Origin: Candidatus Omnitrophota bacterium
GTDB taxonomy: Bacteria > Omnitrophota > Omnitrophia > Omnitrophales > Aquincolibacteriaceae
Length of the DNA stretch: 64,000 nt
Assembly: GCA_030698625.1 (NCBI GenBank)
Contig: JAUYMS010000028.1
Span: 3,854-67,853 of the forward strand
Direction of reading: 5' to 3'
This document shows positions 1 to 60,116 of the stretch, in pieces; the stretch's first letter is position 1, and every line of letters starts with the position of its first letter. Under the pieces are notes generated by a model. The model did no database searches, had not been told where the DNA came from, and worked only from the letters and a program-made list of their open reading frames with translations. The position numbers were made by a program, and so were the translations under genes.

Positions 1-821
1 AGGAAGCGATTGCCACAGTGATTGATAGCGTCCGGAATGCGCTAAAGGGCACATCCCACACCTATGAGCTCCTTGTTGTGGATGATTGCTCGGACGATAA
101 GACCGTTGAGATCGCCGCGTCGAAGGGCGTGAAGGTCATTCGGCGGCGGATGAGAGGCGGTTCTGGATCCTCCCGCCGAACGGGTATCCGGGAATCGCAA
201 GGAGCGATCATCGTCATGCTTGATGCCGACGGCTCTTACGAAGCAGGAGATATTCCGCGGTTACTCGAATATTTCCCGGAGTACGACCAGGTTAATGGCG
301 CTAGAACAAGCGAGCAGGGTACGTTGAAGCTTCTGCGCACGCCGGCGAAGTGGATCATTCGAAAGCTCGCGTGTTATTTAACAAGCCAGAACATACCGGA
401 TTTGAATACCGGACTCAAGGCGTTCAAAAAAGATATCATGAAAAAGTACCTATGGGTACTCCCTGATGGGTTCTCATGCGTCACGACGATGACTCTGGCG
501 TTTCTAGCTAATGGCTTTGCCGTAAAATATATCCCTACGACGTATCACAAGCGGATAGGCAAATCGAAGTTTCATCCGGTAAAAGACACCGCTTCATACC
601 TCAATACAGTTGTTCGTATGGTGATGTACTTCAAACCCTTACGTGTTTTCATGCCCTTGGCTTTCGGGCTGCTTGCCTTTGGGCTGATTAAATCTGTTTT
701 GAGTCTTGTCTATACCTCGACGATTCAGGAGTCGGATATCATTATCATTATGACTGCTGTACTTCTTGGTGCCGTTGGGCTCCTCGCAGATTTGATTGTC
801 GCCTACCAGAATCGTGACTAG
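1..821 (+). CDS. GT2 glycosyltransferase with C-terminal TM helices, GtrB/CsbB-like; 5' end lies upstream of the window
   Basis: Reading frame is open to nt 1 with no upstream stop. Motifs LLVVDDCSDDKT and MLDADGSY(E) are GT2 DxD-type. The hydrophobic C-terminus (MPLAFGLLAFGLI..LGAVGLLADLIV) is typical of polyprenyl-phosphate hexose synthases. Confidence 0.8.
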   Translation, partial: EAIATVIDSVRNALKGTSHTYELLVVDDCSDDKTVEIAASKGVKVIRRRMRGGSGSSRRTGIRESQGAIIVMLDADGSYEAGDIPRLLEYFPEYDQVNGARTSEQGTLKLLRTPAKWIIRKLACYLTSQNIPDLNTGLKAFKKDIMKKYLWVLPDGFSCVTTMTLAFLANGFAVKYIPTTYHKRIGKSKFHPVKDTASYLNTVVRMVMYFKPLRVFMPLAFGLLAFGLIKSVLSLVYTSTIQESDIIIIMTAVLLGAVGLLADLIVAYQNRD

Positions 822-3141
822 ACGCTTCAAAGACTCCTTCGCCATTACTCTCATCATTGCCGCGATCGCGGTGGTGTTCTATGATCTCTTGACCCTGGAT
901 CAGGCCTTTCTTAGCGGGGATCACCGCGAACAGCAATATCCCTGGGCGTTTATATTTCAGGAGGCTCTGAGGGGCGGGCATCTACCGTGGTGGACACGTG
1001 CCATTCATTGCGGATTTCCAATCCTTGCGGAGGGGCAGATCGGTGCTTTTTACCCGGTCAACATCCTGTTCTACGCGCTCTTGCCCATCAAGTGGGCATA
1101 CAACTACAGCATTCTATTCCATTATGTCGTCGGCGGGCTGCTGTTCTACGCATACCTGCGTCGGTCTGGGCGTTCCACAGAAGCATCCTTTATCGCGGCC
1201 GTTATTTTCCTTTTTGGTTCCAGTCAAGGGGGATACTTTTATTATAATTACATCTCTCAGAAAGTAGTTATTTGGCTCCCGCTGACTCTTCTATTGATAG
1301 ATCGCCTGCGTGAGAGGAAGCAGGCGCTGGATGCGTTTCTGCTGTCGTTAGTATTTGCCTTACAGATATTTGGCGGGTATCTCCAAGTGGCGATTTACTC
1401 TGTTCTTTATTCATCAATCTATTTCCTTTTCTTCTGGTTTCGTGAGCGAAGCACGAAAGTGGTCCTCCTTTTTACGGCATCGGGGTTGCTGGCTATCTTT
1501 TTTTCGCTAGTCCAACTGCTGCCGACGCTTGAGCTTGCACTTCTCTCATCGCGAGCCGAGGCAGTGAAAGGGATAGCGTATCTGGGATCCGCTACACCCA
1601 TGGCCTGGCTAACGCTGTTTTTCCCGTCCTGGGATTCCTTCCTTAGGTCGGAGTTTTACGTGGGCATTTTGGGCCTATTTTTCGCAATCATGAGTTTTTC
1701 GGGAGAGAGGGATACAAAGCGTAATTTTTTTGTTTTCGGAGCAGCCCTTTTCTTTCTGCTGGCGTTGGGGCAGTACAGCCCCCTTTATGTGGGTATCGTG
1801 GAGATGACCGGGTTTAATGGGTTTCGCACTCCCATTAAATTTCTTTTTTTTGTGACTTTTTCAATGGGGGTCTTGGCGGCTTATGGCTGGGATTCATTTT
1901 TCCAGGAAACTCGAAGGGTGGGGGCGCTGAAGTCGTATCGTTTCTTTGTGATTGTGGTGGGCGCCATGGTCCTCGCTCCTCCGGTCATTGAGTTTGTCCT
2001 CACGGCTTTCCGAGAGACCTTTCTCCCGGTACTCAAGGATTATGTAACTGACCATATATTCGGAAGGCCGGGCCATCACCATTCGTTGGAACATTATATG
2101 AGTCAGGCGGTTTCTTTCTATGACAGTACAATTGATATGGTGACGCTTAAGAATAAATACACATTGAGTGCGTGGCTGTCGCTGGTAGTTGGTTTGGTGG
2201 TCGCGCTAGGGATGGGCCGAGCCGGTTTTAAATCGGTCCGCGGGGTACAGCTCCTGTGCACGTTACTTCTCTTTGTGGACCTGTTCTTTTATGGTTTTAA
2301 CAGCATCAAGCCGAACTATATGCCGTTCGATAGTATCGGGGACAAAAGGGGAGAATCCGCGATTGTCGACGAAATAAAGAAGGATCCGGGTCTGTTCAGA
2401 ATAAGCGAGGTCTACGGCGAGTTGTGGCATAACGACGTCTACCCGATGGTGCCTAGCTCTAATATGCTCCACGGGATCGATGATGTCGGGGCATACTCTC
2501 CGCTCGCCATGAAGGATTACGGTGCCTTCTTGAAGGGCTGGGCCTATGTCAATGATTCCCTCTCTGTCAATTTTGTGACGGCCGACGGTGTTCTTGCTAA
2601 TCTCGAGCGGCTGAGTTTGTTGAACGTGAAGTATATTCAGTCGACCGTTCCGTTGGAACATGAGGATCTGACTCTCTTGATGACCGACAAGGATGTCTTG
2701 CTGTATAGGAATGATGCGGTCCGCTCGCGAGCGCTATTCGCCCCGGGGATGAGAGGGCCGTCGAGTTTGGACCAGATCATGAAAGCGCGTCTTATCGATA
2801 TTCCGATCGAAAGTTATGAGAATCAGCGGGTCCGCATACAATTCGAGGCCGTAACCGACGGTCTTTTCTTGCTCTCAGACATGGCCTATCCGAATTGGGG
2901 GGTGCGTGTGAACGGTGCGGATTCAGCTGTTCTGAAATGGGCCGGTCTATTTCGCGCCGTGGAGGTTCGGCGGGGCGTAAACGACATCGTCTTTGAGTAC
3001 ACGCCGAGACTTTACCGATCCGTGGGTTTGGCGGCAGCGATGACGGCTATCTTGCTGAGCCTGTTCTTTTTGTCTCGATCAGTTCCTGCTTATACGCGAA
3101 GGTTGACGGCCGAGGTTAAAGGCCGGGGGGCAATCGGATGA
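796..3141 (+). CDS. YfhO-family GT-C membrane glycosyltransferase, 781 aa
   Basis: Many predicted TM helices. N-terminal YfhO-like block 'W...GFPILAEGQIGAFYPVNILFY' with a large C-terminal periplasmic domain. Overlaps the upstream GT2 by 26 nt. Confidence 0.7.
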   Translation: MSPTRIVTRRFKDSFAITLIIAAIAVVFYDLLTLDQAFLSGDHREQQYPWAFIFQEALRGGHLPWWTRAIHCGFPILAEGQIGAFYPVNILFYALLPIKWAYNYSILFHYVVGGLLFYAYLRRSGRSTEASFIAAVIFLFGSSQGGYFYYNYISQKVVIWLPLTLLLIDRLRERKQALDAFLLSLVFALQIFGGYLQVAIYSVLYSSIYFLFFWFRERSTKVVLLFTASGLLAIFFSLVQLLPTLELALLSSRAEAVKGIAYLGSATPMAWLTLFFPSWDSFLRSEFYVGILGLFFAIMSFSGERDTKRNFFVFGAALFFLLALGQYSPLYVGIVEMTGFNGFRTPIKFLFFVTFSMGVLAAYGWDSFFQETRRVGALKSYRFFVIVVGAMVLAPPVIEFVLTAFRETFLPVLKDYVTDHIFGRPGHHHSLEHYMSQAVSFYDSTIDMVTLKNKYTLSAWLSLVVGLVVALGMGRAGFKSVRGVQLLCTLLLFVDLFFYGFNSIKPNYMPFDSIGDKRGESAIVDEIKKDPGLFRISEVYGELWHNDVYPMVPSSNMLHGIDDVGAYSPLAMKDYGAFLKGWAYVNDSLSVNFVTADGVLANLERLSLLNVKYIQSTVPLEHEDLTLLMTDKDVLLYRNDAVRSRALFAPGMRGPSSLDQIMKARLIDIPIESYENQRVRIQFEAVTDGLFLLSDMAYPNWGVRVNGADSAVLKWAGLFRAVEVRRGVNDIVFEYTPRLYRSVGLAAAMTAILLSLFFLSRSVPAYTRRLTAEVKGRGAIG

Positions 3142-5100: not shown

Positions 5101-6405
5101 ATGAAGGTTGCACTTATTGATCTGAAGGAGAGCCGTAACGGCTGTAATAATAAGGACAAGGCAGGCGGTTTCGGCAACAAGTCACACGGCGAAGATCTGA
5201 TCTCTCGCATTTATGCTTATTTTAAGCATAGTCAAGTCGATGTTCCCGTAATGCACTTTGGCTATATGGCCGCTATCTTTCGCCAGCATGGGCATACAGT
5301 CAAATTCTACGATGCAGAGCCCGAGGACGAGGAACTGGTCATCATGGCTTCCTCGATCGTTGGTTATGACGAAGAACTCTCGTTTGCTCGCCGCATCCAA
5401 AAGCCCGGCAGGAAGATCGGTTTCATCAACGCATTTGCCACTGTGAAGCCGGAGATCTTTCTCAATGCGTCAGACTTTGTGATTAAGGGGGAACCGGAGC
5501 AGGCCACGATTGAAATTGCCAAAGGGAACGTGAAGCCAGAGGGGGTGATTGACAGCGCCTTGATCTTTGACCTCGAGAGTCTTCCGTTTCCGGACTGGGA
5601 TGGTTTTCCTGTTTCCCGGTACGGCTATTACCCGGTCTTGAAGAAGAAACCGCTTATTTCTATCCTCACGAGCCGGGGCTGTTCGTTTGACTGCAGCTAT
5701 TGTCCGTATATGGTCACTCAGACGGAAAGGTGGCGCAGGCGTTCCGCCAAGCATGTCTGCGATGAAATTGAATACCTTCAAAAGAAGTACAAGGTGCGCA
5801 GCCTCGTTTTCCGCGACATCATGTACACCCAAAGCAAACAGCGCGCCATTCAGATTTCTGAGGAGATCATTCGGCGCGGAATTCGCGTCGAGTGGAGTTG
5901 TGAAACTCGAGCCGATTGCTTGGAAGAGGATACACTGAGACTACTCCACCGGTCGGGGCTGCGAGTTATTCACTTAGGGATCGAGTCGCCAGAGGATCAG
6001 ATCGTCAAAGATTCGGGACGCATCCCAATCAAAGAGATGCAACAGGAGAAGATCGTGCGGCTGTGCGAGAAGATCGGAATCGACGTTATCGGATTTTATA
6101 TCCTCGGCTTTGTCGCGGACACTCAGAAATCCATGCGGCGAACGATTGATTACGCCAAACATTTGAATACGCCTCTGGCGCAGTTCGATGTCATGACGCC
6201 GTATCCCGGTACAAAATTCTATGATGAGATGAGGGACCGTATCTTGAGCCACAATTGGAAGGAATACACAACCCATCATCCGGTCGTTCGACTGGATAAT
6301 GTCTCTCACGAAGAAGTGCTCGACTTCAAGAATCGCGCTTACCGGGAGTATTATTTTCGGTCGAGTTGGATGCTCAAGCACGGACTGAAGACCGTCCTCG
6401 GATAA
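5101..6405 (+). CDS. B12-binding domain radical SAM protein
   Basis: CxxxCxxC radical SAM cluster motif 'SRGCSFDCSYCPY'. N-terminal Rossmann-like B12-binding region. The fold is class B radical SAM. Confidence 0.8.
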   Translation: MKVALIDLKESRNGCNNKDKAGGFGNKSHGEDLISRIYAYFKHSQVDVPVMHFGYMAAIFRQHGHTVKFYDAEPEDEELVIMASSIVGYDEELSFARRIQKPGRKIGFINAFATVKPEIFLNASDFVIKGEPEQATIEIAKGNVKPEGVIDSALIFDLESLPFPDWDGFPVSRYGYYPVLKKKPLISILTSRGCSFDCSYCPYMVTQTERWRRRSAKHVCDEIEYLQKKYKVRSLVFRDIMYTQSKQRAIQISEEIIRRGIRVEWSCETRADCLEEDTLRLLHRSGLRVIHLGIESPEDQIVKDSGRIPIKEMQQEKIVRLCEKIGIDVIGFYILGFVADTQKSMRRTIDYAKHLNTPLAQFDVMTPYPGTKFYDEMRDRILSHNWKEYTTHHPVVRLDNVSHEEVLDFKNRAYREYYFRSSWMLKHGLKTVLG

Positions 6406-6419
6406 GCGGAGAGATCACC

Positions 6420-7322
6420 ATGATTGCAATCACCGGAGCCACAGGCTTCATCGGTGTGCATCTTATCAAGGCCCTGCAGGAAAGGGGGGTGGCGTTTCGC
6501 TGCCTCGTCCGCGCTAATTCCACTAGGGTGAGCCAAGTAAAGGCTCTGACCGAGCATGTCGTCCAGGTCGACTACAGTCGACCCGAGACTTTGCGTAAAG
6601 CGTTTACGGGGTGCGATGTCCTTGTACATGCCTTGGGTCTCATTAACGGGAGTGAGGAAGAACTGCGCGAGGCCAATATTGAGTGCCCGCGCAGAGTGTT
6701 TGAGGCCGCAACGAAGGCCTCGGTCGAGCGCGTTGTTTTTATCAGCTCCGTAGCCGCTTTGAGACGGCATGGACCCTATGGCGTGACCAAGTCCGAGGGT
6801 GAGGATGTGCTGAGGAGTTCCGGGATTCCCTACATCATTCTACGTCCGGCATACGTTTATGGGGTGGGTGACGAAAACAATACGGCTCTGATGCTGCGAA
6901 CCTTAAAACGATTCCCGGTGATCCCTGTACTGGGAGGCGGGCAGTTCCGGTTACAGCCCGTGTACGTCGACGACGTCTGCGATCTGATCGTTCAAGCGCT
7001 CAGATGCAAAACCTGGAATCGGGCGTACACGGTTGCAGGACCGGAACAGATTACATTGTGGTCCATGCTGAAGTTGCTTGCCGGAGGTCTCGGGGTGAGT
7101 CGACTTCTTGTACCGATCCCGCTAAAACCGGTTCAGGCGTTGATGCGTTTTTATCTTCGCTTTTTTCCCGAGACCAAGCTCCCGGCCAAGCAGATACTCG
7201 AGTTGGATAAACACGAGGCCTTTGATATCTCAGAGACACAATCGAATTTTAATTTTAAGCCCCGGCCTTTTCGCGAAGGGGTTGAGGGGATGTTTACCGG
7301 CGACCTATGTGCGGCATTGTAG
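6420..7322 (+). CDS. NAD(P)-binding NmrA/NDUFA9-like SDR, sugar epimerase/reductase family
   Basis: Motif 'IAITGATGFIGVHLIKAL' GxxGxxG. Start chosen at ATG 6420 with upstream GGAGAG. Confidence 0.7.
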   Translation: MIAITGATGFIGVHLIKALQERGVAFRCLVRANSTRVSQVKALTEHVVQVDYSRPETLRKAFTGCDVLVHALGLINGSEEELREANIECPRRVFEAATKASVERVVFISSVAALRRHGPYGVTKSEGEDVLRSSGIPYIILRPAYVYGVGDENNTALMLRTLKRFPVIPVLGGGQFRLQPVYVDDVCDLIVQALRCKTWNRAYTVAGPEQITLWSMLKLLAGGLGVSRLLVPIPLKPVQALMRFYLRFFPETKLPAKQILELDKHEAFDISETQSNFNFKPRPFREGVEGMFTGDLCAAL

Positions 7323-9223
7323 GCTATTTTACTCCTGATCCCAAACAGGCCGACGGCTCTTTTTTGGCCGCGATGAATGAAACTCTAGTGCACCGGGGCC
7401 CCGATGCTTCGGGGTTGCTTCGACGACCGCATGCGGGTTTGGCGATGCGGCGTTTGAAGGTCATTGATCTCGAGACCGGAGACCAGCCGATTTCAAGCGA
7501 ATCCGGATCCTGCCATATTGTTTTCAACGGGGAGATATACAATTTCCGGGAGTTGCGGGACCGTCTTGAAAAGAAAGGGCATCATTTCCGAACTCGGTCT
7601 GATACGGAGGTTTTGCTACACGCCTACGTTGAGAAACGCGAAAAGTGTCTCGATGATCTCAATGGCATGTTTGCCTTTGCCGTCTACGATGAGAAAGATA
7701 AGAGCCTATTTGTGGCTCGAGACCGGCTTGGAATTAAGCCGCTCTTTTATGCGGAGACAGACAAAGGACTGGTCTTTGCTTCCGAGCTGAAGGCCTTTCT
7801 GGCTTGCCCGTGGATTTCCTGTGAACTTGATCTGCAAGCGCTTTCCCATTTTCTGAGCTTGAATTATTTGCCCCCTCCGTGGACACCCCTTAAGGGAATA
7901 AGACAATTGCTGCCGGGTCACTGGATGCGTGTTCAGGCCGACAAAGTTGAGGTGAAATCCTACTGGGAGATTCCGCTTGAAGAGAACCGTGACATCTCGG
8001 AGCGGGAGGCCGTCACAGAAATTACACGCCTTTTGCATCGCTCCATCGAAAGGCAGTTGATTGCCGATGTGCCCGTAGGCGCTTTCCTCAGCGGGGGGAT
8101 GGACTCAAGCACTCTGGTTGCTCTCATTAAAGAGCATCGGCACGATAAGATTAAAACCTTTTCGGTGGGCTTTGAAGACCCGGTCTATGACGAGACGCCT
8201 TATGCGAGGGAAGTGGCAAAGTACTTTGGCACCGAGCACTATGAAATGCTCTGTAAACCAGAAGATGTGAGCCGCTCTTTATCCCGCATTGCCTTTCAGG
8301 CGGACAACCTGTTGGCGGACCAGGCAGCCCTGCCTCTGTATCATGTCTCGCAATTGGCTAAACAGCATGTGACGGTCGCCTTGTCGGGTGATGGGGGTGA
8401 CGAATTATTTGTCGGATACCCGACATTTCATGCTGACCATTATCACTCTTTGTATACTCGTTTGCCGCGGTTCTTGCGGAAGAATGTGATCGAGGCCGGA
8501 ATACGGGCCCTGCCGGCCTCGACAGGAAAGCTCAGTTGGGACTATCGCGCCAAGAAATTTATTCAGGCGGGCGACATGTCTCGAGAGAAGGCGCATTACT
8601 GGTGGCGAACTATTTTTACGACCGACGAAAAGGAAAGCATTCTCACCGAGGCAGCGTGGCGTGCCATCCCCGACAAAGATGCCTTCGGGCTTTATGCCGA
8701 ATACTTTAACAGATCGACGGGCTCCAGTTTTGTGAATCGCGCTCTTTATGCGGACCAAAAGGTATGGCTGCCCGGCAATAACCTTTGTAAGGTAGATACC
8801 ATGTCGATGGCCCATGGGTTGGAAGCGCGTGTTCCCTTCCTGGATCACGAGTTGGTCGAAACCGTCGCGCGCCTGCCGGCCGAGATGAAGTTTCGCGGCC
8901 GCATATTGAAGTACCTGCTCAAGAAAGCGATGAAGGGCCGCCTACCCGAATCAATTATCAAGAGACGGAAGGCCGGATGGCATATGCCCATTGCCGGCTG
9001 GTTGCGGGGGCCCATGGCGGGTTATGCTCAGGATTTACTCCTACAGCAGAAGACGCCGGTCCATGGGCTATTTAAACAAGATGCGCTTGCGGCATTGATT
9101 CGAGAACATCGTGTCGGCAGGCATAATCACGCCTTCAAGATATGGGGACTTCTGGTTTTGAATCATTGGTCGGGCCAGTTCTTAAGCAAGCAGCAGGTCG
9201 GGCAGGCGGTGAGTGCGTCATGA
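7307..9223 (+). CDS. asnB: Asparagine synthase (glutamine-hydrolysing)-like amidotransferase
   Basis: N-terminal 'MCGIVGYF' with the class II glutamine amidotransferase Cys2. Central PP-loop 'SGGMDSS'. Length 638 aa. Confidence 0.85.
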   Translation: MCGIVGYFTPDPKQADGSFLAAMNETLVHRGPDASGLLRRPHAGLAMRRLKVIDLETGDQPISSESGSCHIVFNGEIYNFRELRDRLEKKGHHFRTRSDTEVLLHAYVEKREKCLDDLNGMFAFAVYDEKDKSLFVARDRLGIKPLFYAETDKGLVFASELKAFLACPWISCELDLQALSHFLSLNYLPPPWTPLKGIRQLLPGHWMRVQADKVEVKSYWEIPLEENRDISEREAVTEITRLLHRSIERQLIADVPVGAFLSGGMDSSTLVALIKEHRHDKIKTFSVGFEDPVYDETPYAREVAKYFGTEHYEMLCKPEDVSRSLSRIAFQADNLLADQAALPLYHVSQLAKQHVTVALSGDGGDELFVGYPTFHADHYHSLYTRLPRFLRKNVIEAGIRALPASTGKLSWDYRAKKFIQAGDMSREKAHYWWRTIFTTDEKESILTEAAWRAIPDKDAFGLYAEYFNRSTGSSFVNRALYADQKVWLPGNNLCKVDTMSMAHGLEARVPFLDHELVETVARLPAEMKFRGRILKYLLKKAMKGRLPESIIKRRKAGWHMPIAGWLRGPMAGYAQDLLLQQKTPVHGLFKQDALAALIREHRVGRHNHAFKIWGLLVLNHWSGQFLSKQQVGQAVSAS

Positions 9224-10143
9224 GTGAGACTCAGATGCAGACGGGGCGCATGGACTGGGTCCGGGAGTATTTGAAGGAGCTGCCTCATTGCCCGCTGTGC
9301 CATGGCCGTGGCGCAACGCCGTTGCTGGAATTAGGACCCTTGCGAGTTTGGCGCTGCAAAGATTGCAGATTGATGTATTTGAACCCATGTCTTTTTCCCG
9401 ACGAACAGAAAATGATTTTTTCCTCACCCGATTTCCTAACCCGTGTCAGCGAGTTCTTCGCGGATTATTATCAAGGCGAAACTTGGAACACTCCGCGGAC
9501 CCTAGCGGTTTATAACGGCGTGATGCGGGAGTTGGCCTCTTTGTTTCCGGCGAAAGGGAAAATTGTCGACATCGGGTGCGGCCGCGGCGCTTTTTTGAAG
9601 GCGGCGAAGGCCGGCGGGTGGACCGCTAGCGGAGTCGAACCCAACTTTGATGATGCTGAACACTTGCGGCGTGATCATGATATTGAAGTATTCCAAGGCG
9701 ACTTTTTTGAAGCCGCGCTTCCTGAGTCAGGATTCGATGTGGTTTCCATGTGGGATCTCATAGAGCATGTCCCCGAGCCGGGTGATTGGGTAAGGCGCTG
9801 TGCCAAACTACTCAGGCCGGGCGGCGCTCTCTTGCTGGCTACTCCGAATCATTTTAGCTTCTTAGATTTTCTGGCGTTCACGTCGTATCGTCTTAGCTTC
9901 GGAAATTTTTCTTACGCTTTGGAGAAGCTTTATACCGTCGATCATACCCTTTACCTGACACAGCATACCTTAAGGGACCTCTTTGAGCGCTCGGGGTTTA
10001 CCGTAGTTAAGACAATTAAGGTCAATACGGATCTGAGCCGCTATGCGATGGGCCCTTTGTTTCGCGGTATTGCGGAGGGATTGCTGGCGGTTGGCGGCCT
10101 GATGCAGCTTCACAATCGCGTGATAATGATTGCTATTAAATGA
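9220..10143 (+). CDS. Zn-ribbon class I SAM methyltransferase (paralog 1 of 3)
   Basis: N-terminal 'CPLCHG...CKDCRLMYLNP' four-Cys ribbon. SAM motif I 'VDIGCGRGAF'. Start at ATG 9220 (ATGA overlap with asnB). Confidence 0.8.
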   Translation: MSETQMQTGRMDWVREYLKELPHCPLCHGRGATPLLELGPLRVWRCKDCRLMYLNPCLFPDEQKMIFSSPDFLTRVSEFFADYYQGETWNTPRTLAVYNGVMRELASLFPAKGKIVDIGCGRGAFLKAAKAGGWTASGVEPNFDDAEHLRRDHDIEVFQGDFFEAALPESGFDVVSMWDLIEHVPEPGDWVRRCAKLLRPGGALLLATPNHFSFLDFLAFTSYRLSFGNFSYALEKLYTVDHTLYLTQHTLRDLFERSGFTVVKTIKVNTDLSRYAMGPLFRGIAEGLLAVGGLMQLHNRVIMIAIK

Positions 10144-10202: not shown

Positions 10203-11231
10203 ATGCCCCAACAATCACAAGCCAATCAGCAGACTTTAACCCCCGAACAGACCTACTTCACAGGCAAGCAGATCCTTGTAACCGGAGGCGCTGGGTTCCT
10301 GGGTAGTTTTCTATCTGAGGATCTTGTTGCCTGCGGTGCCAAAGTCACGATTTTTGACCGCTTCACTCACGGGCGAAGCCGTGTGCGGGGTCTCGAGAGC
10401 CATGAGTCGGTGGAGGTCATTCAGGGCAATGTGCAAAATTACAAAGAGCTTGTGCGTGCCGTTCGGGGTAAGGACTTAATCTGGCATTTGGCGGGTAACA
10501 CGGATATTCCTGCGGGACTTCGCGACACGAGTCTTGATCTGAAGGACGGCATCATTGCGACGCAAAATGTGCTGGAGGCCATGCGTGAGGCCGGTGTGAT
10601 GAAACTAGCTTTTCCTTCCTCGGGTGCCATCTACGGAGAACAGACATCCGGATTGCGCCGTGAAGATAAGGGCCCGACCCTCCCGATATCCCTTTACGGT
10701 GCGGGCAAGGTTTCCTGCGAAGCGTTTATAAGCGCTTATGCGCACTTATTTGATATTCAAGCATGGATCTTCCGCTTCGGCAATGTTATCAGCGGACGCA
10801 TTACGCACGGCGCTATCCGTGATTTTATCCGTAAGCTGCGTGCGAATCCGAAAGAGCTGGAAGTTCTTGGTGACGGGACTCAGACGAAGAGCTATCTCCT
10901 GGCGGAGGAATGTATCGAGGGTATGCGTTATACCATAGCGCACACAAACATTGAGGACGGCGCGGGCTTCTGCCACCTCTACAATCTCGGTGCTCCCGAC
11001 GAAACGGCTGTGCTCGACATTGCAAAGATCGTTATCGGGGAAATGGGCCTGCCGGGCTGCACGATCAAACTGAAGGGCGGAGAGCGCGGGTGGAGAGGCG
11101 ATCAAGCCAAGATTGCGCTCGACATCTCAAAGCTCCGCGCTTTCGGATGGGAACCCAAACACTCCTCCGATGATGCCGTGCGGATTTCCGTACGCCGGAT
11201 GATTGAGCAGAAGGGGATTGAGGATGAATAA
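10203..11231 (+). CDS. NAD-dependent sugar epimerase/dehydratase (extended SDR)
   Basis: 'ILVTGGAGFLGSFL' motif and YxxxK 'YGAGK'. Confidence 0.8.
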   Translation: MPQQSQANQQTLTPEQTYFTGKQILVTGGAGFLGSFLSEDLVACGAKVTIFDRFTHGRSRVRGLESHESVEVIQGNVQNYKELVRAVRGKDLIWHLAGNTDIPAGLRDTSLDLKDGIIATQNVLEAMREAGVMKLAFPSSGAIYGEQTSGLRREDKGPTLPISLYGAGKVSCEAFISAYAHLFDIQAWIFRFGNVISGRITHGAIRDFIRKLRANPKELEVLGDGTQTKSYLLAEECIEGMRYTIAHTNIEDGAGFCHLYNLGAPDETAVLDIAKIVIGEMGLPGCTIKLKGGERGWRGDQAKIALDISKLRAFGWEPKHSSDDAVRISVRRMIEQKGIEDE

Positions 11232-12543
11232 GGTCTGTGTCGCAGGTCTGTGGCATTTGGGGCTCGTAAGCGCGGCGACGCTCGCGGAGCTGGGTTTTCG
11301 TGTGACAGGCTTCGAGGCCGATACTCCGAAAATTGAGAATTTGCGTCAGGGAAAGCTCCCGCTTTATGAGCCCGGGTTGGAGGAGCTCGTCAGCGCTCAC
11401 CTTAAGAAGTCTTCGCTCCAGTTCGAAGATGACCCTGTCCGGGCCGTGAGCCAGGCGCAGGTCGTACTGATTACCTTTGATACTCCGGTTGATGACGAAG
11501 ACCGCGTGGACCTATCTGAGTTAGACAGCACCATCACACTAATCACGCCGCATCTGGATAAGAATGCGGTTGTGATTATTCATAGTCAGGTTCCCGTCGG
11601 TACGTCCGAGCGATGGCAAGTTGAGATCGACACAAAACGCCCCGGGGCGAGTATTGACGTCGTGTGTAGTCCCGAAAATTTGAGGTTGGGATGCGCCTTG
11701 GAACTTTACAAGAAGCCCGACATGATTGTCGTGGGAAGTGATTCGGAGCGCGCTCGAAAGAAGGCTGCGACATTCTTCGCTTTTTTTGATGCTCAAAAGA
11801 TTTATGTTTCACGGCGTACGGCTGAAATGGCTAAGCATGCCCTGAATGTTTTTTTTGCGACGAGTATCAGTTTTGCCAATCAGCTCGGAAACCTGTGCGA
11901 TCAAGTGGGCGCTGACGGCATGGAGATCGCGAGGATCTTGAAAGCAGACGGCCGTATCGGAAAACGGGCACAGGTAAGGCCGGGGCTGGGATTTGCCGGG
12001 GCTACCCTTGCGCGGGACCTTCGAGCCTTGCAGCGCTTGGGACATGAGGTCGGCGAGCCAACGCCGTTGATTGATGCGGTTCTTGACATTAACCAGCGCC
12101 AGACAGAGCGTGTGGTCCGGCTGATAGCACAGTATTTTGAAGGGGATATGCGGGGGAAGGTGGTCACGGTTCTGGGCTTAACGTACAAGCCGGGGACCAG
12201 TACGTTGAGGCGTTCTGCGGCACTCGAAATTATCCAGAAATTGCAGAACTTGGGAGCCGAAGTGCGGGCTCACGATCCGAAGGCTGACATTGGCGAGTAC
12301 TCGGGTAAGGTCCCTTTTGAATTTATCCGGGATCCCTATGAAGCGGTAGCCGGCGCTCATGCAATCTTGCTCACGACGGAATGGCCGGAGTATCGAGATC
12401 TCGACTTCGCAAAGATTCGCGAACGCATGAGCGGGGCTGTGATTCTTGATGCAAAAAACCATCTGGATGCAAAAAAAATCCGTGAGAAGGGTTTCGTCTA
12501 CCTGGAACTAGGGCGAGGGCAGTTAGCCGGGGAGAAAGTATGA
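11224..12543 (+). CDS. UDP-sugar 6-dehydrogenase, UDP-glucose/GDP-mannose dehydrogenase family
   Basis: N-terminal 'KVCVAGLWHLGLVSAATLAELGF' Rossmann fold. Central and C-terminal dehydrogenase domains. Start at ATG 11224. Confidence 0.8.
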   Translation: MNKVCVAGLWHLGLVSAATLAELGFRVTGFEADTPKIENLRQGKLPLYEPGLEELVSAHLKKSSLQFEDDPVRAVSQAQVVLITFDTPVDDEDRVDLSELDSTITLITPHLDKNAVVIIHSQVPVGTSERWQVEIDTKRPGASIDVVCSPENLRLGCALELYKKPDMIVVGSDSERARKKAATFFAFFDAQKIYVSRRTAEMAKHALNVFFATSISFANQLGNLCDQVGADGMEIARILKADGRIGKRAQVRPGLGFAGATLARDLRALQRLGHEVGEPTPLIDAVLDINQRQTERVVRLIAQYFEGDMRGKVVTVLGLTYKPGTSTLRRSAALEIIQKLQNLGAEVRAHDPKADIGEYSGKVPFEFIRDPYEAVAGAHAILLTTEWPEYRDLDFAKIRERMSGAVILDAKNHLDAKKIREKGFVYLELGRGQLAGEKV

Positions 12544-13559
12544 TGAGGGTCGGAATTGTCGGAGCGGGATTGCAGACCAAACGCCGTGCGCCGGTGTTTT
12601 CTCAGTCGAAAGACGCGGAGCTTGTGGTTATCTCAGCGGAGCATGAAGAGCACGCGAAGGCCATGGCGGAACAATTTAATTGCGAGTTTGCGCGGGGATG
12701 GGATTGGGTGGGCGAACGCGACGATTTGGATGTGATCCTAGTGTGCACGCCTCCCGATTTACATGAGAAAATCTCGATATTGGCGATGCGCACGGGCAAG
12801 CACGTGCTGTGTGAAAAGCCGCTTGCGCGCACGTTGGAAGAATGCCGGAACATGATAGCCGTCTCGAAGGAGACGGGCAAGGTGTTGAAATGTGGTTTTA
12901 ACCACCGCCATCACCCTGCCGTCTTAGAAGCCAAGCGGCAAGTTGATGCGGGCAAGATCGGCAAGCCGCTTTTTGCGCGAAGCCGCTACGGGATTATCGG
13001 TATGCCGGGCCGCGAGAAGGAATGGCGTGCGGATCCGGCGCGTGCCAGCGGCGGCCATCTGATGGAGCAGGGGATTCACGCGGTGGATTTGTCCCGGTGG
13101 TTCCTCGGAGATTTCCAGGAAGTGGCCTGTTTTCGGGAGACTCAGTATTGGTCCTTCGGTGACCTCGAAGACAACGCTTTCATGATGCTGAGAGGAAACG
13201 AGGGGCGCATGGCGTCGATCCATACTTCGCTCCTGCAATGGAAGAATCTGTTTTCCCTCGAGATCTACGGCGAAGAAGGGTATTTTGAGATCGAGGGGCT
13301 TGGGGGCTCTTATGGCACCGAAAAACTGCACTATTGTCCGAAGCACTATGACAGGCCCTTTGAGGTGCAGACGACCGAGTTCCGCGGAGGAGATACGTCG
13401 TGGCAGTTGGAGTGGGACGAATTTGTTGCCGCCATCAACGAAGATCGTGAACCCTTAGGGAGCGCGTTTGACGGGATGGAGGCGATGCGTCTTGTTTTTG
13501 AAGGTTATCGCTTTTCGGATGAACAGTCAGCGCGTCGGTCGGCGAACCCTGTTAGCTAG
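12540..13559 (+). CDS. Gfo/Idh/MocA-family oxidoreductase, WbpB-like candidate UDP-sugar 3-dehydrogenase
   Basis: 'MRVGIVGAGLQ' N-terminal Rossmann fold and conserved 'EKP' motif 'HVLCEKPLA'. Confidence 0.75.
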   Translation: MMRVGIVGAGLQTKRRAPVFSQSKDAELVVISAEHEEHAKAMAEQFNCEFARGWDWVGERDDLDVILVCTPPDLHEKISILAMRTGKHVLCEKPLARTLEECRNMIAVSKETGKVLKCGFNHRHHPAVLEAKRQVDAGKIGKPLFARSRYGIIGMPGREKEWRADPARASGGHLMEQGIHAVDLSRWFLGDFQEVACFRETQYWSFGDLEDNAFMMLRGNEGRMASIHTSLLQWKNLFSLEIYGEEGYFEIEGLGGSYGTEKLHYCPKHYDRPFEVQTTEFRGGDTSWQLEWDEFVAAINEDREPLGSAFDGMEAMRLVFEGYRFSDEQSARRSANPVS

Positions 13560-14168
13560 TCTTCTCTTTTCAATTGCGGCGATCTTCCGAGCCGCCTCCC
13601 AAAGATCCTTCACGATGTAGTCGGGTTTTGCGCCTTTTTTTTCCATGAGCCTCAACCAATCCAACTTAACTTGACCGACTAATAGGGTCGTGCAGCCGGC
13701 TCGCTTTCCTGCCTGGATATCATTGATGCCGTCCCCAACCATATAGGAAGTCCTTAGGTCGATATTAAGATCGCGTGCCGCTTGTTTCAAAAGCCCCGGT
13801 TTAGGTTTGCGGCAGGGGCAATTCCTACGCAGGCGCCCATAACCTTTGGTAGGATGACAGACGCAGTAATAGATTCCGTCGAGGGCGGCCCCCTCTTTCT
13901 TGAGCAGTCGCACCATCTTTCGGGTGATATCGTTCAAGGCTTTTTCGGTGAAATGCCGCATGGCCAATCCGGGTTGGTTTGAGGCGATGACGGCCTTTAG
14001 ACCGATACAGTTTAGTCGCCGTACGGCTTTAGCTGCGTGCGGCAGGAGCCGGAATTGTTTTGCGGTGAAGGGTGTCTCTATGATTCCCATCTCTTCATGG
14101 AAGATAATATCGTTGATGACGCCGTCACGATCGAGAAAAACCGCACTCGACTTCTGGTTAACTGACAT
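13527..14168 (-). CDS. gmhB: D-glycero-D-manno-heptose 1,7-bisphosphate phosphatase (HAD, histidinol-phosphatase-like)
   Basis: 'VFLDRDGVIN' HAD motif I. Zn-binding 'CVCHP..CPCRKPKPG' typical of GmhB. Start chosen at the internal Met (MSVNQKS). Confidence 0.75.
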   Translation of the reverse strand: MSVNQKSSAVFLDRDGVINDIIFHEEMGIIETPFTAKQFRLLPHAAKAVRRLNCIGLKAVIASNQPGLAMRHFTEKALNDITRKMVRLLKKEGAALDGIYYCVCHPTKGYGRLRRNCPCRKPKPGLLKQAARDLNIDLRTSYMVGDGINDIQAGKRAGCTTLLVGQVKLDWLRLMEKKGAKPDYIVKDLWEAARKIAAIEKRRLANRVRRPTR

Positions 14169-14880
14169 GCGTTCTCCTGCTCGTGCGCAGAAGCTTCTCC
14201 CGCACATTGGCAAGTCCGTCGGGTGTGCCGACGTCGAGAGGAGGTTCGGCGATCGGGTAGGCCTGCAGGCCGCCCTCTGCGGCAATTTTCGCGAGTACAT
14301 CGACTTCGAGCGAAAACTTCACGTCGGATTCGAAATAGTCAAACAGGGCCTTCGAGAACAGCTTGATCCCGCTATCGACATAATCCTTGCCGGCCGGGTT
14401 TATATAATCGTAGGCCTCAATGATGCGGCGATCCTCGGACAATTTTACATTGCTGCGAAATAAGGGCGGCGAGTTCCTCCAGCATGCGAGCAAGCCGATA
14501 AAACGAGACGCATCAAACCGGTCATCAAAATCGCGGTAATCAAGTGTGAGATAATTATCACCGCTGACGACAAAGAATCGGTCATGTAAAAGCCCTCGTG
14601 CCTGCTTGATTGCCCCGCCGGTGCCGAGCAGCTCCTTTTCAAAGGAATATTGAATCTTATAGCCCCACGCTGATCCGTCAGCAAAATACTCTTGGATTTT
14701 GTCGGCTCGGTGGCCGACGCATAGCACGAAATTCTTTATGCCGTAACTGCCTAAATGATCAAGCAGCCACTCGAGAAAAGGCTTATCGCCGACGGGCACC
14801 ATAGGTTTCGGCAGGTCCCGGGTAATGTCGCCGAGTCGGGTACCCAATCCGCCGGCTAAGATTAAGGCTTGCTCAGTCAC
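14158..14880 (-). CDS. hddC: D-glycero-alpha-D-manno-heptose 1-phosphate guanylyltransferase-like sugar nucleotidyltransferase
   Basis: 'LILAGGLGTRLGDITRDLPKPMVPV' nucleotidyltransferase signature. Sits in an operon with gmhA, gmhB and hddA. Confidence 0.7.
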   Translation of the reverse strand: MTEQALILAGGLGTRLGDITRDLPKPMVPVGDKPFLEWLLDHLGSYGIKNFVLCVGHRADKIQEYFADGSAWGYKIQYSFEKELLGTGGAIKQARGLLHDRFFVVSGDNYLTLDYRDFDDRFDASRFIGLLACWRNSPPLFRSNVKLSEDRRIIEAYDYINPAGKDYVDSGIKLFSKALFDYFESDVKFSLEVDVLAKIAAEGGLQAYPIAEPPLDVGTPDGLANVREKLLRTSRRTHVS

Positions 14881-14883
14881 GTG

Positions 14884-15534
14884 CTAGGCGAGAGTTTTCG
14901 TTCCCTGCCAAGCGTTGAGAAACTCCTGGATGGTCAACTCTGTTTGGGGGTGATAAGCCAGGGCAGGGAAGAATTTGTAGGGAACTGTGATAATGTCGGC
15001 GCCCGCCAAGGCGGCGTCATTAATCTGGGTGAGCAGGCGGATGCTCCCCACGATAATTTTGGTGGTGAAATTACTTTGTTTGAACAGCTGTGCCGACTGA
15101 CGGATGACATCCAACCCGTCATGGCCCAGATCCGAGATGCGGGAATAGAAGATGCTTGCATAAGTTGCACCCGCACTGGCCGCCAACATCGCCTGATTGA
15201 CTGTCATGATGGCCGTGACATTTGTCTTGATTCCCTTATTCTTGAGAACGCTTGCAGCTTCAAGGCCGGCTGGCGACATCGGCAGCTTGACGACAATGTG
15301 TTTGCTCCACGCCGCAAGCTTCTGGGCTTCGATAATCATTTCGGCGGGGTCATTGGTCGTCACTTCAACGCTCAGAGGTCCGGAGACGATCTCAAGAATC
15401 TCCTCGACACGCGTGCGCAGATCAACACCCTCCTTGGCGAAGATCTTGGGGTTGGTGGTCACGCCGCGTATAACACCCCAGCGTGCGATTTCGCGTATCT
15501 CGTCAATATTGGCCGTATCGATAAAAAGTTCCAT
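14884..15534 (-). CDS. tal: Transaldolase / fructose-6-phosphate aldolase family (short type)
   Basis: 'MELFIDTANIDEIREI..GVTTNP' motif. About 216 aa, matching short transaldolases. Confidence 0.8.
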   Translation of the reverse strand: MELFIDTANIDEIREIARWGVIRGVTTNPKIFAKEGVDLRTRVEEILEIVSGPLSVEVTTNDPAEMIIEAQKLAAWSKHIVVKLPMSPAGLEAASVLKNKGIKTNVTAIMTVNQAMLAASAGATYASIFYSRISDLGHDGLDVIRQSAQLFKQSNFTTKIIVGSIRLLTQINDAALAGADIITVPYKFFPALAYHPQTELTIQEFLNAWQGTKTLA

Positions 15535-15552
15535 GGGTCTCTCCTTTAGGGG

Positions 15553-16194
15553 TTATGCCGAGGCGCAGGTGGTGATTCGCGATTCGGCTCCCTCGGTGGA
15601 TGCGATTTTCTCGATCAGACGGTTACAGACCAAATGACCGAGGGCCAAGTGAAAACTTTCGACATGCTGAGTGTTATGAAAGGGGACGGTAACGCAGATG
15701 TCGCAGATTTCCTTCATGACACCTCCGTCGTAGCCGCTAAAGCCGATGGTTTTCACGCCGTGTTCCTTGGCGATGAGATAAGCTTTCAGAAGATTCTGCG
15801 ACCACATGCCTGCTTTGTCTTTGCCGGAGCCGCCGTGCGCACTGAAGCCGACGAGTGTGTCGCCGGGCTCGATAAAATTGAGCATTTGTTCGGAGTAGAG
15901 ATTGTCGAATCCGTTATCGTTGACGAGCGCCGTCGTTAGAGCCATGTTGTCGGTCAAGCCGATGACCTTGAATCTCTTCTTGCCGGGCAGGGCTGTGCAC
16001 TTGCCGAAATCATTAACGAGATGCGAAGCGGTCGAACCGGAGCCGCCATTTCCCATCAGGTACATGCGTTTACCGTTTGCCCAGGTTCCGTAGACAGCGT
16101 CGATGATCTGATCGATCTTGTCACGGTCGAGGGTGTCGACGATGGATTTCATTTCACTCAAATATTGATCGATGTAATCACGGTTTGTTTTCAC
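15553..16194 (-). CDS. gmhA: SIS-domain sedoheptulose-7-phosphate isomerase (copy 1)
   Basis: 'MYLMGNGGSGSTASH' SIS motif. Length 213 aa. Confidence 0.8.
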   Translation of the reverse strand: MKTNRDYIDQYLSEMKSIVDTLDRDKIDQIIDAVYGTWANGKRMYLMGNGGSGSTASHLVNDFGKCTALPGKKRFKVIGLTDNMALTTALVNDNGFDNLYSEQMLNFIEPGDTLVGFSAHGGSGKDKAGMWSQNLLKAYLIAKEHGVKTIGFSGYDGGVMKEICDICVTVPFHNTQHVESFHLALGHLVCNRLIEKIASTEGAESRITTCASA

Positions 16195-16226
16195 TCGGTT
16201 TCTCCTTTAATTTACGCCTACTGGTT

Positions 16227-17252
16227 CTAGACCAGAGCCGCTTTGGTATGTTTGTTCCGGATTCCGTCATCGACGAGTACCGTCGTGCCGGTAAAATCAA
16301 ATGAGAACTTGAGTTCTTCCAGTTCCTCGGCGGCCATAGCTTCGCGCAATCTCTGCCGGTTGACCGGGTCGGAAGAGTGAAGCATGAGATATCCGCCGCC
16401 GCCGGCGCCTATGATCTTGCCCGCACTCGCACCGTTGTCCAGGGCCGTTTCGTAGAGGCGGTGAATACGTCCGTTTGAAACCATGTCGGAAAGCTTCTGT
16501 TTTGCTTCCCAATGCTCGCGCAGGAAATCGGCATAGCGGTCAATCTCTCCTGTGCGAAGAATCTCCTCGATCTGGATTCCGAGATTCTTAATTCTGTGAA
16601 GATTGTCCAGCGTCCGGGTTTCTTTTTTTACGCCTCGAACCAGTGCCTGCTGAACCTTGAAGGAGTTTCTTTTGATGCCGGTATAGAAGAGAAGGATGTC
16701 ATTTTCGAGGCGATCGATGGATTCGTGCGAAATTTGAACGGGGCTCACAACAACGCCGCCGCCCGGCTCAAAGACCATGCGTGAGATTCCGCCGAAAGCC
16801 GCAATGTACTGATCCTGCTTGCCGCCGGCTTCGGCCAGAATTTCGCGCTCAATGCGACATGCCATGTGTGCAATCTCGTATTGGGTCATGCGCAGACCCT
16901 TGTGGGCCGCCAATGCCGCGATGAGACCGACCGTAAAACTGCTCGAACTGCCAAGTCCCGTGTCCGAGGGGACATCGGCAAAAGAAATAATTTCGATGCC
17001 TGTATCCTTGATGCGGAACAGTTTCATGGCTTCTCGGACTACCGGATGCTGAACTTCATCGGCCGTGTTGACGATTTCGCGCTTGGAGTAACAAATGCGG
17101 ATACTCTTATCAAAACTGCTGTGGATGACAATATAGATATACTGATCTAGTGCCGCGCTTACGACGTAGCCGCCGAACTGCTCGTAATATTCCTTTACGT
17201 CAGTACCGCCGCCGCCGAGACAAATCCGGAGTGGTGTACGAGTGATGATCAT
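16227..17252 (-). CDS. hddA: GHMP kinase, D-glycero-alpha-D-manno-heptose 7-phosphate kinase-like
   Basis: GHMP motif 'PSDTGLGSSSSF'. Start chosen at the internal ATG (MIITRTPLRI). Confidence 0.7.
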   Translation of the reverse strand: MIITRTPLRICLGGGGTDVKEYYEQFGGYVVSAALDQYIYIVIHSSFDKSIRICYSKREIVNTADEVQHPVVREAMKLFRIKDTGIEIISFADVPSDTGLGSSSSFTVGLIAALAAHKGLRMTQYEIAHMACRIEREILAEAGGKQDQYIAAFGGISRMVFEPGGGVVVSPVQISHESIDRLENDILLFYTGIKRNSFKVQQALVRGVKKETRTLDNLHRIKNLGIQIEEILRTGEIDRYADFLREHWEAKQKLSDMVSNGRIHRLYETALDNGASAGKIIGAGGGGYLMLHSSDPVNRQRLREAMAAEELEELKFSFDFTGTTVLVDDGIRNKHTKAALV

Positions 17253-17401
17253 ATGGCTGGGTATTATATCGGCGCGATTCGGAGGTTGTAAAGCGGTTAT
17301 TTTTGTAATCCATGTAGGCACAATATCTTACGATGATGCTGTAAGTTATTTAAAACAATGCGCTTAGCTCGATATAAAGCTGAATGGCCCCTTAATAAGG
17401 G

Positions 17402-17440: not shown

Positions 17441-18181
17441 ATGAAGCCCTTTGTCATGCTCCCTACGTATAATGAAAGCGAGAATATCGCTCTTTTAATT
17501 GAGCAGATATTACGCGTATGCCCAAGTTGCCAGATCGTCGTCGTCGATGACGATTCCCCGGATGGGACATGGCGGATTGTGGAAGAGATTCGCGAGAGGG
17601 ATTCCAGGGTGCACCTAGTGCACCGCAAGAGCAATCGCGGCCGCGGTATTTCGGGGATTAAGGGGTTTCTTTATGCCCTCGACCACGGTGCGGATGCGGT
17701 TCTGGAAATGGACGCCGATTTTTCGCATGACCCATCTTATTTGCCGCACTTCTTTTCTTCAATTCAAGAATATGATGTGGTCTCCGGTTCAAGGTTCGTG
17801 CAGGGCGGTCGCGATGCCGACCGGGGATGGCTGCGGCAAAGGATTACCTACTTTGCTAATTTATATATACGTATCGTATTGCGCATTCAGCTTACCGACT
17901 GCAGTTCGGGGTTCCGTTGTTATCGCCGTGAAGTCTTGCAGAATTTGAATCTCCCCTCCATGGTCTCGATTGGCCCGTCGATCGTGCAGGAAATGCTCTT
18001 GCGGGCATGTCAATTGGGATACGATGTTTTGGAAATTCCCATTGAGTTCCGTGACCGCCAGAGGGGAAAGACAAAACTGACCTATCGGCATTTGATCAAC
18101 GGATTTCGGATGGTTTTGAAATTGCGTTTTTCAAAACCGCGGAAAAAACTCAAAGAGGGATCCCCTGAGGTTCCGGTATGA
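17441..18181 (+). CDS. GT2 glycosyltransferase, DPM1-like polyprenyl-phosphate hexose synthase (no TM tail)
   Basis: 'VMLPTYNESENI', 'VVVDDDSPDGT' and 'DADFSHDP' motifs. Length 246 aa. Confidence 0.8.
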   Translation: MKPFVMLPTYNESENIALLIEQILRVCPSCQIVVVDDDSPDGTWRIVEEIRERDSRVHLVHRKSNRGRGISGIKGFLYALDHGADAVLEMDADFSHDPSYLPHFFSSIQEYDVVSGSRFVQGGRDADRGWLRQRITYFANLYIRIVLRIQLTDCSSGFRCYRREVLQNLNLPSMVSIGPSIVQEMLLRACQLGYDVLEIPIEFRDRQRGKTKLTYRHLINGFRMVLKLRFSKPRKKLKEGSPEVPV

Positions 18182-43368: not shown

Positions 43369-43459
43369 GGTGATAACTGTAACGGCAGATGATACTTGAT
43401 TCGATCGGGAACCTCAAGAACATGTGGTCAAGGTGGGATTTGACTCCTATAATAAAAAG

Positions 43460-47447: not shown

Positions 47448-47459
47448 AGGGAGAACCCA

Positions 47460-50067: not shown

Positions 50068-50075
50068 CGAGCGTC

Positions 50076-60106: not shown

Positions 60107-60116
60107 GCCGAGGAAA

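Follow-up and report, generated by a model that had tools for sequence, protein, structure and literature searches.

The N-methylation of an acetimidoyl group is known for legionaminic acid, where it takes place at the level of the CMP-activated sugar. It requires PtmH in Campylobacter and was attributed to ORF 8 in Legionella (PMC3766260; PMC13317340; PMC6003734). PtmH (Cj1325/6) and ORF 8 of the Legionella pneumophila LPS locus N-methylate the 5-acetimidoyl group (PMC3766260; PMC13317340), after the acetamidino group has been made by PtmG, a protein of the WbuX family. The ptmG (Cj1324) and ptmH (Cj1325) genes are presumably neighbours, to judge from their consecutive locus numbers. Another described group comprises TcaB9, KijD1 and MtmC (PDB 3ndi, 5t64 and 4rv9), nucleotide-sugar C3-methyltransferases in which an N-terminal four-cysteine ribbon precedes a class I S-adenosylmethionine (SAM) domain. 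Here we analyzed three genes with the same layout, MT1, MT2 and MT3, located in a 64,000-nucleotide stretch of a Candidatus Omnitrophota genome (contig JAUYMS010000028.1; this whole stretch is further called the window).

With moderate confidence we propose that the three enzymes perform three separate sugar-tailoring steps within a large surface-sugar island. They would represent different orthologous groups of one superfamily, with MT3 acting on an amidine and MT1 on a sugar derived from UDP-glucuronic acid. From the observed genes, architecture, family relations and conserved neighbourhoods we infer the substrates and the methylated atoms of all three.

Architecture and kinship of the three methyltransferases

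The original prediction described three paralogous zinc-ribbon SAM methyltransferases. All three open reading frames proved to be real genes (Table 1), and each translation was identical to an NCBI protein annotated as a class I SAM-dependent methyltransferase of a Candidatus Omnitrophota metagenome-assembled genome. The start of MT1 at 9220 was favoured over an alternative upstream ATG at 9142, because Met1 was invariant in 21 orthologs. At all three starts there was a 4-nt overlap with the stop codon of the preceding gene: an AsnB-like gene for MT1 (ATGA), a family 2 glycosyltransferase (GT2) gene, GT2b, for MT2 (ATGA), and HisF for MT3 (GTGA). Therefore MT1, MT2 and MT3 are embedded in operons.

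The predicted ribbon motif, C-x2-C...C-x2-C-x3-Y-(L/V/I)-x-P, was found in all three proteins. Its four cysteines were invariant in 83 aligned sequences of the MT2/MT3 family; in the MT1 family (59 sequences aligned) two were invariant and two were conserved in at least 90% of the sequences. The class I methyltransferase core was also as predicted, with PF13489 (Methyltransf_23) as the top Pfam match of each protein, above its gathering cut-off of 27 bits. A search of NCBIfam with MT1, MT2 and MT3 returned UbiG and BioC matches, all of them below threshold. AlphaFold2 models were confident, with pLDDT of 95.3 for MT3 and 93.9 for MT1. The common design is an N-terminal four-cysteine zinc ribbon, a class I Rossmann SAM domain, an invariant (E/D)-His hairpin, a short helical lid and a final beta strand. 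The 'GLSSHM' tail noticed earlier on MT2 and MT3 is real as well (S335 invariant; L334, S336 and H337 at least 90% conserved), and it is a family signature, not a coincidence.

Pairwise alignment showed similarity far over chance, at two levels. MT2 and MT3 were 37% identical over their full length (E 1e-77), whereas MT1 shared 25-26% identity with MT2 and MT3 (E 1e-13 and 1e-14). When the profiles of the MT1 family and of the MT2/MT3 family were compared by hhalign, they aligned over 280 columns, from the ribbon through the last strand, with a probability of 100% and E 1.7e-50. Paralogy in the strict sense thus applies to MT2 and MT3, while MT1 is only a distant relative from another orthologous group. 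Recent triplication was considered and ruled out by the levels of identity and by the split into different orthologous groups. MT1, MT2 and MT3 are one superfamily with one architecture.

We further compared this superfamily with the TcaB9 group, which it had been said to resemble. KijD1, MtmC and TcaB9 were the top matches in the PDB when the MT1 and MT3 models were searched with Foldseek (approximately 320 columns). The TM-scores were 0.5-0.62 when normalised to the query and 0.40-0.47 when normalised to the target, with 16-20% identity. The MT1-family profile matched KijD1 (E 2e-22) and TcaB9 (E 9e-22) in alignments that began at the ribbon, and the MT2/MT3 profile matched KijD1 and TcaB9 over the core domain only (E 3e-11). 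The likeness includes a conserved histidine after strand 4 and an (E/D)-His hairpin, as both family profiles aligned their IEH and (E/D)H motifs with 'MCH' and 'YDEH' of KijD1. The IEH motif corresponds to E211-H212 in MT3 and E182-H183 in MT1, and the (E/D)H motif to E258-H259 in MT3 and D241-H242 in MT1; H212 and H259 of MT3 were invariant in 83 sequences. Judging from the titles of PDB entries, these positions should equal the residues of TcaB9 that were mutated as H181N, E224Q and H225N.

On the other hand, TcaB9, KijD1 and MtmC are approximately 405-416 aa long and the three window proteins 307-346 aa, with a short helical lid in place of the large C-terminal domain. From the set of three HMMs suggested originally, PF13489 matched all three proteins. 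PF08421 (the N-terminal zinc-binding domain) matched none of them at E<=0.01, and neither did PF08484 (the C-terminal domain); the proteins end 60-90 residues past the core. Since both of these models were unmatched and the C-terminal domain of approximately 150 residues has no counterpart, MT1, MT2 and MT3 are not members of the TcaB9 type. What stands of the proposed likeness is remote homology and a similar fold, seen in the Foldseek matches, the MT1 profile, the ribbon and the histidines. Direct sequence searches of the PDB gave only core matches of the UbiG or 3cc8 type, and none for MT2; TcaB9 and KijD1 were reached by profiles. The best direct matches for the Rossmann core were Methyltransf_23/UbiG-like class I methyltransferases (for example PDB 3cc8 and 4kdr), which have neither the ribbon nor the C-terminal LSSHMW lid and whose genomic contexts are unrelated to those of the MT genes. 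The superfamily is remotely homologous to TcaB9, KijD1 and MtmC and probably has in common with them a base-assisted mechanism on a nucleotide sugar, but none of the observations points to C-methylation. Nucleotide-activated sugars, on which the TcaB9 group acts, are the likely substrate class of all three enzymes.

The MT3 family and the acetamidino module

An indexed search found more than 1,400 homologs of MT3, and the best 120 were all approximately 50% identical to it and approximately 335 aa long. The exhaustive search (E<=1e-30) gave 322 representatives of the MT2/MT3 family after clustering at 50% identity. A scan of one genome per species was made with alignment A2, a closer set of sequences than the diverse mixed alignment of MT2 and MT3 types (A1), and it found carriers of the family in at least 244 species. 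Gene neighbourhoods were counted by tblastn, with the window's own proteins as probes, in the best 80 loci of the 244 carriers. These loci came from approximately 17 phyla and included cyanobacteria, Bacteroidota, Myxococcota, Planctomycetota, Leptospira, DPANN archaea and bacteria of the candidate phyla radiation (CPR). Kolteria novifilia Pan216, Calothrix brevissima NIES-22, Nostoc sp. LEGE 12447 and Leptospira soteropolitanensis are candidate cultivable carriers.

WbuX was present in 75 of the 80 loci and lay within 300 bp of the methyltransferase gene, on the same strand, in 70 of them. HisH and HisF were each detected in 68 loci. The synthase NeuB was found in 56 loci and adjoined the methyltransferase gene in 3; a cytidylyltransferase adjoined it in 8. 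The methyltransferase keeps far closer to WbuX than to either the synthase or the cytidylyltransferase, and this is most simply read as MT3 acting on the product of the amidotransferase. The same arrangement, a methyltransferase next to a WbuX homolog and a cluster with HisH-like, HisF-like and NeuB genes, was seen on three arbitrarily picked long metagenomic contigs. The WbuX homologs of these contigs were approximately 375-412 aa long, had no Pfam match and were recognised by tblastn. The commonest gene order in the family was HisH-HisF-WbuX-MT; in the window the last two genes change places (HisH-HisF-MT3-WbuX).

In the window, PseB scored 521 bits (cut-off 408), PseI 456 (cut-off 340) and PseG 209 (cut-off 154). 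As WbuX, PseB and PseI are all over their curated cut-offs, the sugar of the window is pseudaminic acid with an acetamidino group. We considered whether the four genes form a module independent of nonulosonic acid genes and dropped this idea, because in loci without a NeuB match the gene next to the methyltransferase still encoded a cytidylyltransferase or resembled Glyphos_transf. An E. coli O-antigen carrying the module was sought as an anchor to a known structure, with no match, and a literature search for a link between N-acetyl-sugar amidotransferases and a methyltransferase gave nothing relevant.

According to the proposed mechanism, HisH, HisF and WbuX would first make the acetamidino group from an N-acetyl group of CMP-pseudaminic acid. 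MT3 would then probably move a methyl from SAM to an amidine nitrogen, with the conserved histidine as the base, and the product would be N-methylacetimidoyl pseudaminic acid. The position of its gene makes the acetamidino group of CMP-pseudaminic acid the probable target of MT3. The same chemistry is described for PtmH and ORF 8, the only amidine N-methyltransferases known, and the systems also resemble each other in the CMP-nonulosonic acid substrate and in the WbuX-type origin of the acetamidino group, MT3 lying between HisF and WbuX. They differ in the sugar, which is legionaminic acid there and pseudaminic acid in the window. ORF 8 is moreover 228-239 aa long, compared with 328-346 aa for MT2 and MT3, and leaves no room for a ribbon and a lid.

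We tentatively suggest, as a possibility deserving somewhat less than even belief, that the MT2/MT3 family of approximately 335 aa is an unrecognised fourth component of the acetamidino module, which N-methylates acetimidoyl nonulosonic acids by a route not orthologous to PtmH. In some lineages a PhyH dioxygenase may elaborate the product further.

Operons of MT1 and MT2 and the alternative explanations

The MT1 family is small: approximately 24 orthologs share 48-58% identity with MT1, and the next homologs 32%. MT1 is followed by genes for a short-chain dehydrogenase/reductase (SDR), a UDP-glucose-dehydrogenase-like enzyme (DH) and a GFO/IDH/MocA oxidoreductase (GFO). The order MT1-SDR-DH-GFO was kept in every MT1 locus examined (L008-L012, L095-L098 and L099-L102), that is in 7 distinct contexts outside the window, and a divergently transcribed gene set of the GDP-heptose type comes after it. 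The gene upstream of MT1 varied, being AsnB, a tetratricopeptide repeat protein, a giant protein or a CDP-alcohol phosphatidyltransferase. AsnB occupied this position in L008/L009/L100, L012 and L099/L102 and was absent from it in L010/L011/L101 and L095-L097. MT1 would methylate a sugar made from UDP-glucuronic acid by the SDR, the UDP-glucose-dehydrogenase-like enzyme and the GFO oxidoreductase, and such a sugar is its likely substrate.

MT2 belongs to a clade of 11 sequences (47-56% identity), which branches from the MT3 family. The other members of the clade that we examined were all located within NeuB clusters. WbuX, HisH and HisF were found near the MT2-type gene of L004, and a WbuX-like gene immediately upstream of that of L007; in a third context a 380-aa gene lay two genes upstream of the methyltransferase. 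A protein of 605-651 aa adjoined the MT2-type gene in L005/L006, in L007 and on the contig of P0122. In the window MT2 is flanked by GT2b and by PMT2, a GT-C gene, and this triad ends 408 bp upstream of pseB. GT2b showed sub-threshold similarity to dolichyl-P-hexose transferases and had orthologs of 59-64% identity in L010, L095, L099 and L100. A scan for promoters and terminators around MT2 found sites no more numerous than in shuffled sequence. As a diverged paralog of MT3, MT2 might attach another methyl to the sugar that MT3 modifies, or might have been recruited to methylate the polyprenyl-phosphate-linked sugar of the flanking GT2 and GT-C enzymes.

Two proteins among the distant relatives of MT1, P0252 (462 aa) and P0264 (465 aa), consist of a Dpm1-like GT2 domain fused to a methyltransferase core without the ribbon. 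These fusions link the methyltransferase clade to polyprenyl-phosphate-sugar synthases.

The triplication had been taken to suggest several methylations, for example of one acyl group, or else distinct substrates. We find it very unlikely that a coordinated triplication places several methyls on one substituent, for example on a di-O-methylglyceroyl group of pseudaminic acid as in Campylobacter. In its favour are the paralogy of MT2 and MT3, the tandem methyltransferase fusions of the family (P0308 and P0413) and the presence, in the pseudaminic acid (Pse) cluster of the window, of a glyceryl-loading enzyme of the FkbH type (TIGR01686, 288 bits). However, MT1 belongs to the other orthologous group and lies 12 kb ahead of the Pse cluster in a conserved operon of its own, which speaks against a joint role of the three genes. 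The di-O-methylglyceroyl role is not supported either: tblastn with the window protein detected FkbH in none of the 80 MT3-family loci, in 70 of which WbuX is the adjacent gene, and FkbH was likewise missing from the MT2-type loci examined (L004-L007). C-methylation of the true TcaB9 kind, in which the carbon next to a keto group is deprotonated and a branched sugar arises, would fit MT1 best and is improbable, if a little less so. KijD1, MtmC and TcaB9 are the best structural matches, the MT1-family profile reaches them at E of approximately 1e-22 with the ribbon included, both histidine positions are conserved, and either of the SDR and GFO enzymes always encoded downstream of MT1 could make a keto sugar. 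Against this, the C-terminal domain, which in TcaB9 forms much of the dTDP-sugar site, is missing from all three proteins, as are matches to PF08421 and PF08484; the identity and the TM-scores given above are low, and UbiG-type O-methyltransferases and PDB 3cc8 score equally well or better on the core domain.

For MT2 alone, methylation of a polyprenyl-phosphate-linked sugar at the cytoplasmic face, before its flip and transfer by a logic like that of ArnC-ArnD-ArnT, is a possibility that we take seriously while still doubting it. It agrees with the overlap of MT2 with GT2b, with the GT2-methyltransferase fusions P0252 and P0264, and with relatives in which exactly this slot holds another Zn-ribbon methyltransferase, 24-25% identical to MT2 and MT1 (L099, 18594..19607, with L102; L100, 15332..16300). 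It agrees less with L095/L096, where no methyltransferase separates the GT2 gene from the GT-C gene, with the remaining clade members examined, which sit in nonulosonic acid clusters and not between GT2 and GT-C genes, or with the short distance of the triad from pseB. Another explanation concerns the whole MT2/MT3 family, which could methylate a different position of the nonulosonic acid, for example the C4 or C8 hydroxyl, the adjacency to WbuX reflecting operon history or a complex. Short methylases of the TIGR03587 or PtmH type could then carry out the N-methylation, and the nearest core-domain sequence matches include O-methyltransferases such as UbiG. We consider this explanation rather unlikely, since adjacency to WbuX in 70 loci, compared with 3 for NeuB and 8 for the cytidylyltransferase, is expected if the WbuX product is the substrate.

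Several observations weigh against the assignment of three separate steps with MT3 on the amidine. Neither family appears to hold a characterised member. The conserved order around MT1 is weak evidence for functional coupling, because the loci come from close relatives whose neighbouring genes are 50-80% identical. Relatives differ in what lies between GT2b and the GT-C gene, and the role of MT2 is therefore ambiguous; WbuX was not found within 8 kb of the MT2-type gene in L005/L006, which also favours methylation of another position. Given the difference in length, MT3 is probably not an ortholog of PtmH or ORF 8, and probably belongs to a different class I family. The TIGR03587 family, 'pseudaminic acid biosynthesis-associated methylase' (approximately 204 aa), consists like MT3 of SAM methyltransferases of Pse clusters, accompanies an MT3-type gene in 23 of the 80 loci, and might itself methylate the amidine in place of MT3. 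It is a separate family without the zinc ribbon: its model (cut-off 112 bits) gave no match to MT1, MT2 or MT3 at E<=1e-3, while true members in L003 (1121..1738, minus strand) and L005 (3994..4635) scored 171 and 178 bits. The window has no such member. Further, the MT3-type gene was directly followed by that of a PhyH Fe/2-oxoglutarate dioxygenase in L003 and in 9 of the 80 loci (8891..9718 in L003 and 10972..11844 in L015; further loci L018, L021, L022, L038, L052, L054, L064 and L092), and PhyH was fused to the methyltransferase in P0276 (638 aa). Such a partner hints at chemistry beyond simple N-methylation.

The island and the meaning of the family

The features of the window on which the analysis rests are collected in Table 1.

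Table 1. Coordinates of the three methyltransferase genes, their motifs and their partner genes in the window.
Feature	Position	Strand	Evidence
MT1, 307-aa Zn-ribbon class I SAM methyltransferase	9220..10143	+	ORF; PF13489 95 bits
MT1 zinc ribbon C24-x2-C27...C46-x2-C49-x3-YLNP	9289..9387	+	read from sequence; aligns with KijD1 ribbon
MT2, 328-aa Zn-ribbon methyltransferase	18178..19164	+	ORF; PF13489 71 bits
MT2 zinc ribbon C38-x2-C41...C60-x2-C63-x3-YVSP	18289..18387	+	sequence; cysteines invariant in alignment A3
MT2 C-terminal GLSSHM motif	19123..19140	+	sequence comparison with MT3
MT3, 346-aa Zn-ribbon methyltransferase, GTG start	34233..35273	+	ORF; PF13489 68 bits
MT3 zinc ribbon C53-x2-C56...C75-x2-C78-x3-YISP	34389..34487	+	invariant columns in alignments A1, A2 and A3
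MT3 C-terminal GLSSHMW family signature	35229..35249	+	conservation in family alignment
HisH-like glutaminase, acetamidino module	32807..33418	+	PF00117
HisF-like subunit, acetamidino module	33415..34236	+	PF00977
WbuX-family N-acetyl-sugar amidotransferase, directly downstream of MT3	35283..36425	+	TIGR03573 314 bits, cut-off 203
Pseudaminic acid pathway: PseB, PseC, PseG-GNAT, PseI, GNAT, FkbH, MaoC-SDR, GFO, cytidylyltransferase	21249..31523	+	Pfam/NCBIfam
AsnB-type glutamine amidotransferase, translationally coupled to MT1	7307..9223	+	PF00733 349 bits; TIGR01536 515 bits
SDR epimerase/dehydratase, MT1 partner	10203..11231	+	Pfam/NCBIfam
UDP-glucose-dehydrogenase-like enzyme, MT1 partner	11203..12543	+	TIGR03026 338 bits
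GFO/IDH/MocA oxidoreductase, MT1 partner	12540..13559	+	Pfam/NCBIfam
GT2b, Dpm1-like polyprenyl-phosphate-sugar synthase, directly upstream of MT2	17441..18181	+	PF00535 100 bits
PMT2, GT-C (PMT_2) membrane glycosyltransferase downstream of MT2	19252..20841	+	PF13231; orthologs in L095 and L099

Other genes of methyl transfer were also present. A fourth SAM methyltransferase of 227 aa, without a zinc ribbon, is encoded at 59423..60106, and its gene runs into the start of that for a B12-binding radical SAM protein (60033..61937), which partially matches the P-methyltransferase models PhpK/Sden_1168. The gene at 5101..6405 codes for another radical SAM enzyme of the B12 type, similar to HpnJ. 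Counting these, up to six enzymes of the island may transfer methyl groups.

The Pse cluster at 26363..32799 contains FkbH, a MaoC-SDR fusion, a GFO oxidoreductase and a class III aminotransferase similar to glutamate-1-semialdehyde aminomutase. This gene set suggests an unusual N-acyl group on pseudaminic acid, for example a glyceroyl or an amino-acyl group. Downstream of the acetamidino module a 641-aa protein (36422..38347) had no Pfam match even at E 0.1, and both L075 and L088 kept the order MT-p641-Wzx. At the equivalent position L005, L007 and L015 encode proteins of 577-651 aa with weak similarity to Glyphos_transf. The 641-aa protein is a candidate pseudaminic acid transferase or polymerase.

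Two heptose-type gene sets were identified. The set of the GDP-D-glycero-D-manno-heptose type (13527..17321, minus strand) comprises an HddA-like kinase, a GmhA-like isomerase, an HddC-like guanylyltransferase, a GmhB-like phosphatase and a transaldolase/FSA gene, and the other (45906..48071, plus strand) has an HldE-like gene and a SIS gene. A pair of 2-oxoacid dehydrogenase E1 alpha and beta genes and a DAO-family FAD oxidoreductase gene lie in the glycan island at 49099..52338; similarly, in L002 an E1 alpha gene (E1_dh) and split transketolase-domain genes adjoin NeuB. Two YfhO-family membrane proteins and three GDSL-type acylhydrolase/acyltransferase-like genes (796..3141; 40879..43368, minus strand; 39839..40948, minus strand; 43424..44683; 54612..55868) point to several steps of glycan transfer and O-acyl modification in the island.

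Nonulosonic acids and their N-acyl and amidino decorations set surface charge, antigenicity, and phage and immune recognition in bacteria and archaea. MT1, MT2 and MT3 are mostly ordinary sugar-tailoring methyltransferases, already annotated in a generic way, and for the window the result is chiefly a tidy annotation, with three separate tailoring steps in place of one triplicated function. In many phyla, in turn, genes of the apparently uncharacterised MT2/MT3 family almost always lie next to the acetamidino module. The family would also offer enzymologists a compact and well-predicted enzyme (pLDDT 95). A reliable genomic marker for a methyl tied to the acetamidino module would improve the prediction of glycans from genomes, and this matters most for uncultured phyla (Omnitrophota, CPR, DPANN archaea), where no glycan chemistry is known. 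If the family is indeed a fourth component of the module, the modification would be far commoner in nature than the few examples from Campylobacter and Legionella imply.

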